A stretch of 64,000 nucleotides of DNA from Escherichia coli (GTDB lineage: Bacteria > Pseudomonadota > Gammaproteobacteria > Enterobacterales > Enterobacteriaceae). Positions 53,480 to 53,589 of this stretch are shown one piece after another (the first letter of the stretch is position 1; every line of letters starts with the position of its first letter). The notes beneath the pieces were generated by a model. That model searched no databases and was not told the origin of the DNA. It was given only the letters and a program-made list of their open reading frames with translations. The position numbers and the translations under genes are program-made. The stretch lies in assembly GCF_003334785.1 (NCBI RefSeq), contig NZ_QOWV01000002.1. One strand, 5' to 3'.

Positions 53480-53575
53480 TAACGTGATGGGAAGCGCCTC
53501 GCTTCCCGTGTATGATTGAACCCGCATGGCTCCCGAAACATTGAGGGAAGCGTTGAGGGTTCATTTTTATATTCA
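53480..53575 (+). ncRNA. sroE: Possible SroE sRNA (ispG 3'UTR / hisS leader)
   Basis: From memory, SroE maps to the gcpE(ispG)-hisS spacer; 110-nt spacer contains hairpin gggaagcgcctcgcttccc; boundaries approximate. Confidence 0.35.
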
Positions 53576-53589
53576 GAAAGAGAATAAAC

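Follow-up and report, generated by a model that had tools for sequence, protein, structure and literature searches.

CpxQ, derived from cpxP, and SroC, derived from gltI, are processed 3′UTR-derived sRNAs that associate with Hfq, and a third RNA of probably comparable origin, SroE, has been catalogued by Rfam, EcoCyc, and RefSeq for some twenty years. Northern and cDNA evidence for SroE as a discrete species of 92 nt reportedly goes back to the RNomics screen of Vogel et al. in 2003. SroE resembles CpxQ and SroC in lying in a 3′ UTR on the same strand as its parent gene, in ending at a terminator-like hairpin of that parent, in having no reported transcription start site (TSS) of its own, and in its reported association with Hfq. 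It differs from them in its short U tail, in what looks like a leaky terminator, and in having neither a validated target nor a validated seed, and it is unique in that an internal promoter also produces its 3′ half, as leader RNA of the gene that follows. SroE has been classed with sRNAs that arise by processing of a longer transcript (PMC8313858) and was still called uncharacterized in 2018 (PMC6172242). Barquist et al. 2013 found that Salmonella does not tolerate transposon insertions in it, and proposed a T-box-like cis-regulator of hisS (PMC3632133). The databases treat SroE purely as an sRNA gene, and published tables label the hisS start inside it either “sroE” TSS or novel operon.

The window analyzed here is a stretch of 64,000 nt from Escherichia coli, to which all unqualified positions refer. 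In it, the ispG open reading frame (52361–53479, + strand) closes with a TAA stop codon at 53477–53479 (+) and hisS opens with a GTG start codon at 53590–53592 (+), which fixes the spacer at 53480–53589 and confirms as exact the 110 nt assigned to it in the preliminary description. The feature in this spacer is a known one. Rfam model RF00371 (sroE) matches positions 53479–53570 (+) with 116.6 bits (E = 1.8e-28), against a curated gathering threshold of 51 bits, and does so from model position 1 to 92 of 92. The RefSeq ncRNA sroE (b4761; NC_000913.3, 2640595–2640686, − strand) consists of the same 92 bases, and the SroE sequence of the INTERFACE study matches the 92-nt stretch letter for letter. 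Among the features that mark membership of RF00371, the score over the full model, the position between ispG (gcpE) and hisS, the shared strand, and the two hairpins are present; this copy, the type copy for E. coli, agrees with the catalogued RNA in sequence and two-hairpin structure, in coordinates and strand, and in the genes on either side. The earlier identification of the spacer as SroE is thus supported by the full-length Rfam score, by the RefSeq entry, and by the published sequence, as is its placement in the ispG 3′ UTR, given that the final A of the ispG stop codon is nucleotide 1 of SroE as annotated.

When positions 53300–53800 were searched against complete E. coli genomes, the region was carried by 5426 of 5426 at a median of one place per genome, and 501 nt round the spacer are 100% identical to K-12 MG1655. 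The label “REP” given by RepRanger (PMC12306157) was rejected on the same count, since a dispersed, multi-copy palindrome would not be held to a median of one place. In addition, 54 records labeled E. coli match 53300–53800 at just 80–90% identity and are presumably divergent Escherichia lineages filed under that name. The window also holds, with Rfam scores above threshold, GlmY (2916–3063, +, 146 bits), naRNA4 (31735–31806, +, 72.2 bits), the iscRS stability element (32523–32632, +, 138.1 bits), ryfA (40007–40310, −, 314.9 bits), and IS128 (40442–40650, −, 262.1 bits), all known from E. coli K-12.

The stretch 53479–53570 folds with a free energy of −40.1 kcal/mol, compared with −23.65 ± 3.48 kcal/mol for 200 dinucleotide shuffles of the same 92 nt (z = −4.73), none of which (0/200) was as stable. 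The structure line of the sroE model (cmscan) contains zero non-canonical pairs and the minimum free energy fold agrees with its two-hairpin consensus. Hairpin 1 (UGGGAAGCG-CCU-CGCUUCCCG, 53488–53508, +) has a ΔG of −15.9 kcal/mol and consists of the hairpin GGGAAGCG-CCU-CGCUUCCC at 53489–53507, extended at its foot by a closing U·G pair. A GC-rich hairpin had been described directly after the ispG stop codon; the hairpin itself is present at 53489–53507, but it begins 10 nt further on and is not directly adjacent. Hairpin 2 (53517–53563, +, ΔG −21.7 kcal/mol) corresponds to the second structured stretch noted earlier before the hisS GTG and is built on a base stem UGAACCC/GGGUUCA with a variable apex. 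It is followed by a U tract, UUUUUAU (53564–53570, +), 20 nt before the GTG, so that the annotated 3′ end of SroE falls 7 nt past the stem. A GC-rich stem running into a U tract in this way is the hallmark of an intrinsic terminator, and for transcripts coming from ispG hairpin 2 is terminator-like. The hairpin is long and imperfect, with interruptions, and a simple terminator scan made no call at the spacer, because the loop exceeds the 8 nt that the rule allows.

The start of hisS transcription has been located by two independent maps, both of which enrich 5′-triphosphate ends. In Kim 2012 (PMC3415461) a TSS supported by 6 reads, a low number, lies at 2638663 (−) in NC_000913.2, where it is filed under sroE with an upstream sequence ending ...TATGATTGAACCCG / ...CCCGTGTATGATTGAACCCG, and in the SMRT-Cappable-seq data of Yan 2018 (PMC6131387) a TSS at 2640641 (−) in NC_000913.3 is assigned to b2514|b2513|b2512, that is, hisS-yfgM-bamB. 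The two coordinate systems are offset here by 1978 nt, and after the mapping was checked both reports give one and the same base, the G at 53524 (+). This primary TSS of hisS-yfgM-bamB is position 46 of SroE and directly follows the 5′ arm of hairpin 2. The overlap of SroE with the hisS leader, which had been raised as a possibility, is thus borne out by both maps. The resulting hisS 5′ UTR measures 66 nt (53524–53589, +), of which the first 47 nt are common to SroE, and includes the purine-rich Shine-Dalgarno region AAAGAGAA at 53577–53584 (+).

Upstream of this base, a −10 hexamer TATGAT (5/6; 53511–53516, +) occupies the single-stranded linker between the hairpins at −13 to −8, the TSS lying 8 nt past the hexamer. 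The −35-like hexamer TGGGAA (3/6; 53488–53493, +), 17 bp upstream of the −10 and in the 5′ arm of hairpin 1, probably serves as the −35 of hisS, an assignment made from the mapped TSS. The arrangement TGGGAA-17-TATGAT predicts a start within 1 nt of that observed. The site has the features of a sigma-70 promoter, with a triphosphorylated 5′ end and properly spaced −10 and −35 elements, the latter weak; a simple promoter scan made no call here, its score of 8 out of 12 falling one short of the required 9. A second, weak TSS of Kim 2012 (PMC3415461; 4 reads), at 2638974 in NC_000913.2 and equivalent to 53213 (+), is situated inside ispG, 377 nt upstream of hisS, to which it was assigned. The available part of the Cappable-seq supplements of Ettwiller 2016 has no rows for the spacer region.

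The 5′ end of SroE appears to have a different origin. Neither of the two 5′-triphosphate maps reports a TSS at 53479, and a candidate promoter for SroE itself, TTGACG (53454–53459) followed after 17 bp by TAATAA with an expected start at about 53489, was rejected because there is no TSS there in either map and no call in the promoter scan. Processing from the 3′ UTR fits both the listing of SroE in the literature and the absence of a reported TSS at its 5′ end, which would then be generated by endonuclease cleavage; the bases around this end, UA|AUA, do not make an obvious RNase E site.

The position of the hisS start has a direct consequence for hairpin 2. As 53524 lies past the 5′ arm of the hairpin (53517–53523), RNA initiated at the hisS promoter is unable to fold into the terminator stem. 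Folded alone from 53524, the hisS leader yields a small apical hairpin only, without the GC-rich stem before the U tract. Transcripts arriving from upstream contain both arms. Long reads obtained by SMRT-Cappable-seq (PMC6131387) include ispG-hisS-yfgM and rodZ-ispG-hisS units, in which all ispG units read into hisS, and contain no ispG-only operon. The Term-seq tables of Adams 2021, in the part available, list no RNA 3′ end at 2640580–2640609, and the annotated 3′ end of SroE is the sole support for an end at the U tract. The read-through units and the missing Term-seq end indicate that, under the conditions sampled, termination at this point in K-12 is weak or its product scarce. In the same part of these tables, strong “internal” 3′ ends fall within the hisS open reading frame at 53731 and 53882 (+), equivalent to 2640434 and 2640283 in NC_000913.3 and lying 141 and 292 nt past the GTG.

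Judged from its predicted structure, hairpin 2 looks like a leaky terminator of ispG. It shares with the intrinsic (Rho-independent) terminators found between co-oriented genes a GC-rich stem base, a U tract, and a fixed distance to the next gene, and with those that permit partial read-through it shares the documented read-through operons. It differs from them in that its stem in E. coli is long, has interruptions, escapes a simple scan, and has no 3′ end in the part of the Term-seq tables available, and in that the promoter of the next gene is interleaved with the stem.

The reading that best accommodates these features, to which we would give a probability of about three in four, is that the SroE locus has overlapping functions, combining a two-hairpin RNA from the tail of ispG, ending in a leaky terminator, with an embedded promoter for hisS. 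Transcripts from the ispG or rodZ promoters would carry both hairpins; part of those from ispG would stop at the U tract after hairpin 2, as is probable because SroE ends 7 nt past the stem, and the rest would read through. The terminated or processed ispG tail, from the stop codon onward, would persist as the 92-nt, Hfq-associated SroE, protected by one hairpin near each end. As DNA, the same sequence acts as the sigma-70 promoter of hisS, with a probable, weak −35 in the 5′ arm of hairpin 1, its −10 in the linker, and its start at 53524, and transcripts begun there run on into hisS-yfgM-bamB without half of the terminator stem. An embedded hisS promoter and leader would also account for the intolerance of insertions in Salmonella (PMC3632133) without an essential RNA, and any role of SroE in trans would probably be minor at most.

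To place the locus in an evolutionary context, 80 Enterobacterales loci were collected with IspG as the query. The order ispG then hisS on the same strand is kept in 80 of 80, with spacers ranging from 13 to 241 nt. All 80 species examined start hisS with GTG, and in most of them a purine block containing AGAGA, the core of the Shine-Dalgarno region, stands a few nucleotides upstream, which suggests, as far as sequence comparison allows, a conserved and deliberately weak translation start. The Rfam sroE model scored above threshold in the Enterobacteriaceae alone (14 of 40 loci sampled) and in no locus of the Erwiniaceae, Yersiniaceae, or Pectobacteriaceae. A covariance model built here (R1) reached Pantoea, Rahnella, and Serratia at E values of 0.016–0.22 only, and a wider alignment (A3) was excluded from pair counts as it was polluted by minus-strand palindromic matches.

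Within the Enterobacteriaceae, an alignment of 37 sequences (A1) has invariant columns in both arms of hairpin 1, in TGTATGAT, and, for hairpin 2, in the core of each of its two arms, GAACCC and GGGTT. Hairpin 1 has a nearly invariant stem, GGGAAGC/GCUUCCC, and its center, although variable in sequence, has a constant length of 5 nt, which keeps the 17-bp spacing of the promoter. Both promoter hexamers, TATGAT among them, and the spacing between them are invariant in all 37 sequences, and TGGGAA-17-TATGAT is the top promoter-like element in nearly all Enterobacteriaceae spacers. RNAalifold found 14 conserved, nearly invariant pairs among these 37 relatives, with a single compensatory change from G-C to U-A in one locus (L058). 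Pairing is kept, yet a promoter plus a terminator base would explain most of the conservation equally well.

In all Enterobacteriaceae with a T run, the base of hairpin 2 (GAACCC/GGGTTC), an A, and 5–8 T residues (T5–T8) are found 19–24 nt from the GTG, and the same base and T run occur at this distance in Serratia and Rahnella. The apex carried on this base is unrelated between genera, yet is always self-paired when the sequences are folded individually, and its size extends from a 5-nt loop in Enterobacter to an insertion of ∼125 nt in two loci. The Enterobacter form, GAGCCCA-UUCUU-UGGGUUC-U6, is a textbook intrinsic terminator. In the Yersiniaceae and Pectobacteriaceae, an invariant TTGAA-N16-18-TATAAT lies inside the hairpin, just 5′ of CGGGTTCATTTTT, and predicts a hisS start ∼29–47 nt before the GTG, while the two-hairpin spacers of Pantoea and Tatumella have TATGAT at the equivalent relative place. 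A promoter nested in this hairpin thus seems to recur, at differing positions.

On this basis the reading can be extended, tentatively and with somewhat less than even odds, to a conserved module of interleaved terminator and promoter. The stem base and U tract would be fixed across the Enterobacterales and the hisS promoter would have moved within them, its transcripts escaping the ispG terminator in every layout; SroE would be a by-product, possibly used in trans via Hfq. In the Enterobacteriaceae layout, the linker would hold the −10, with transcription starting at the foot of the 5′ arm, and in the Yersiniaceae and Pectobacteriaceae TTGAA-N16-18-TATAAT would sit in the apex, with a predicted start in or after the 3′ arm.

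Several loci depart from these layouts. In the Pantoea loci L049, L051, L053, and L067, hairpin 1 is followed by a T4–T6 run of its own, which places two tandem terminator-like hairpins before hisS. Spacers of 13–62 nt without any SroE-like element are found in Pantoea sp. 1.19 (L065), in Erwinia (L047, L059, and L062), and in Rosenbergiella (L063 and L068); in L065, hisS must share a transcript with ispG or be transcribed from a promoter within that gene. Palindromic insertions, lineage-specific and placed exactly in the hairpin loops with the stem bases intact, occur in the loop of hairpin 1 in Pseudocitrobacter (∼75 nt; L008, 2631–2730 of that locus, and L009) and in the apex of hairpin 2 in Cedecea sp. 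(∼125 nt; L038, 2670–2835 of that locus) and Klebsiella sp. BIGb0407 (L043). The two kinds of insertion have no similarity to each other, and a search of the ∼125-nt insertion against E. coli genomes gave no match. These may be MITE or ERIC-like elements.

The proposed architecture is compatible with a further possibility, that SroE is a genuine trans-acting, Hfq-dependent regulator derived from the 3′ UTR and pairing through the linker GUGUAUGAUU or its 5′ end, and this has to be weighed against what has been published on the RNA. SroE was among the Hfq-associated sRNAs, with chimeras, in RIL-seq of nitrogen-starved E. coli (N-24) (PMC12539622), its level was modestly lower, by 1.75-fold, in an hfq mutant of Klebsiella pneumoniae (PMC3136514), and the hairpins are joined by an invariant, single-stranded linker, as would suit a pairing region. 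The 47 nt held in common mean that RNA-seq, RIL-seq, or Hfq-bound reads called SroE may stem from the hisS 5′ UTR, and each invariant segment is also explained by promoter hexamers or by the terminator base. When 10 predicted targets were tested in vitro, ligB was bound weakly and 9 of the 10 showed no binding (PMC6172242), overexpression of SroE had no effect on biofilm, motility, or fimbriae (PMC4606813), and its level did not differ significantly among the nutrient conditions tested (PMC12266141). The RNA is also without an (ARN)x Hfq motif (PMC5575007) and its U tail is short, at 5 U. No physiological trans target or validated seed region of SroE is known, and a regulator of this kind appears unlikely.

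Less probable still is the proposal that there is no discrete functional RNA at all, SroE being a transient decay intermediate or a cloning product of ispG-hisS read-through whose conservation comes wholly from the hisS promoter and 5′ UTR. Such an origin would agree with the lack of a 3′ end at that of SroE in the available part of the Adams 2021 tables, with the read-through of every ispG operon seen in long reads, and with the fact that no robust target or phenotype has been reported. In hairpin 2 the 5′ arm, and in hairpin 1 the 3′ arm, are conserved as pairing partners, including the compensatory change, and lineage-specific apical stems continue to pair; these observations count against the proposal, since a promoter alone requires no pairing. 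Moreover, Enterobacter has its textbook terminator at the same position, the annotated 3′ end is where intrinsic termination would put one, and the RefSeq and Rfam entries were curated from experimental cloning. Decay alone leaves both the preserved pairing and the canonical terminators of relatives unexplained.

The suggestion that in the spacer a cis-acting sensor or attenuator, T-box-like or otherwise, tunes hisS to histidine or tRNA-His draws on the constant position of the element directly upstream of the essential hisS, the intolerance of insertions, the terminator-like hairpin, and, in E. coli, a His-rich reading frame next to the TSS, and is very improbable, in that the hisS TSS leaves the 5′ arm of the terminator out of the leader, the apex in which a specifier would be expected differs completely between genera and is only a 5-nt loop in Enterobacter, some relatives (Erwinia, Rosenbergiella, and one Pantoea) do without the element, and the embedded promoter explains the transposon result. 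T-box, riboswitch, and His leader were likewise rejected as identities, a permissive Rfam scan of 53300–53800 (E ≤ 1) returning sroE only, apart from a weak palindromic minus-strand echo. An open reading frame in an alternative frame (53526–53666, +), which begins 2 nt past the TSS, overlaps the hisS start, and encodes 46 amino acids with 6 His, was rejected as a leader peptide and is probably due to chance, because its ATG is absent outside Escherichia, Citrobacter, and a single further locus (L037), and stop codons interrupt the frame in most genera. The locus resembles the T-box leaders and His leader-peptide attenuators that precede hisS and his genes in other bacteria (Naville and Gautheret 2010, PMC2965389) in its place upstream of hisS and in its terminator-like hairpin, and differs from them in having no T-box match, no conserved leader peptide, and a terminator 5′ arm outside the transcript of the hisS promoter. 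The attenuator-like leader envisaged for hisS in the preliminary description is thus unsupported.

As a discovery, the identification of SroE at this locus carries little weight, the RNA having long been catalogued, and its useful point is interpretive. The sRNA and the promoter and leader of hisS are physically inseparable, so data assigned to SroE need to be read accordingly: reads, Hfq chimeras, transposon “essentiality,” and deletion phenotypes of SroE are all confounded with the transcription of hisS. Effects of the two can be separated only with a probe or a mutation placed 5′ of 53524 that spares TATGAT. More generally, the spacer would represent a tidy case of a promoter nested in the terminator of the preceding gene, a terminator that is seen by upstream transcripts only.
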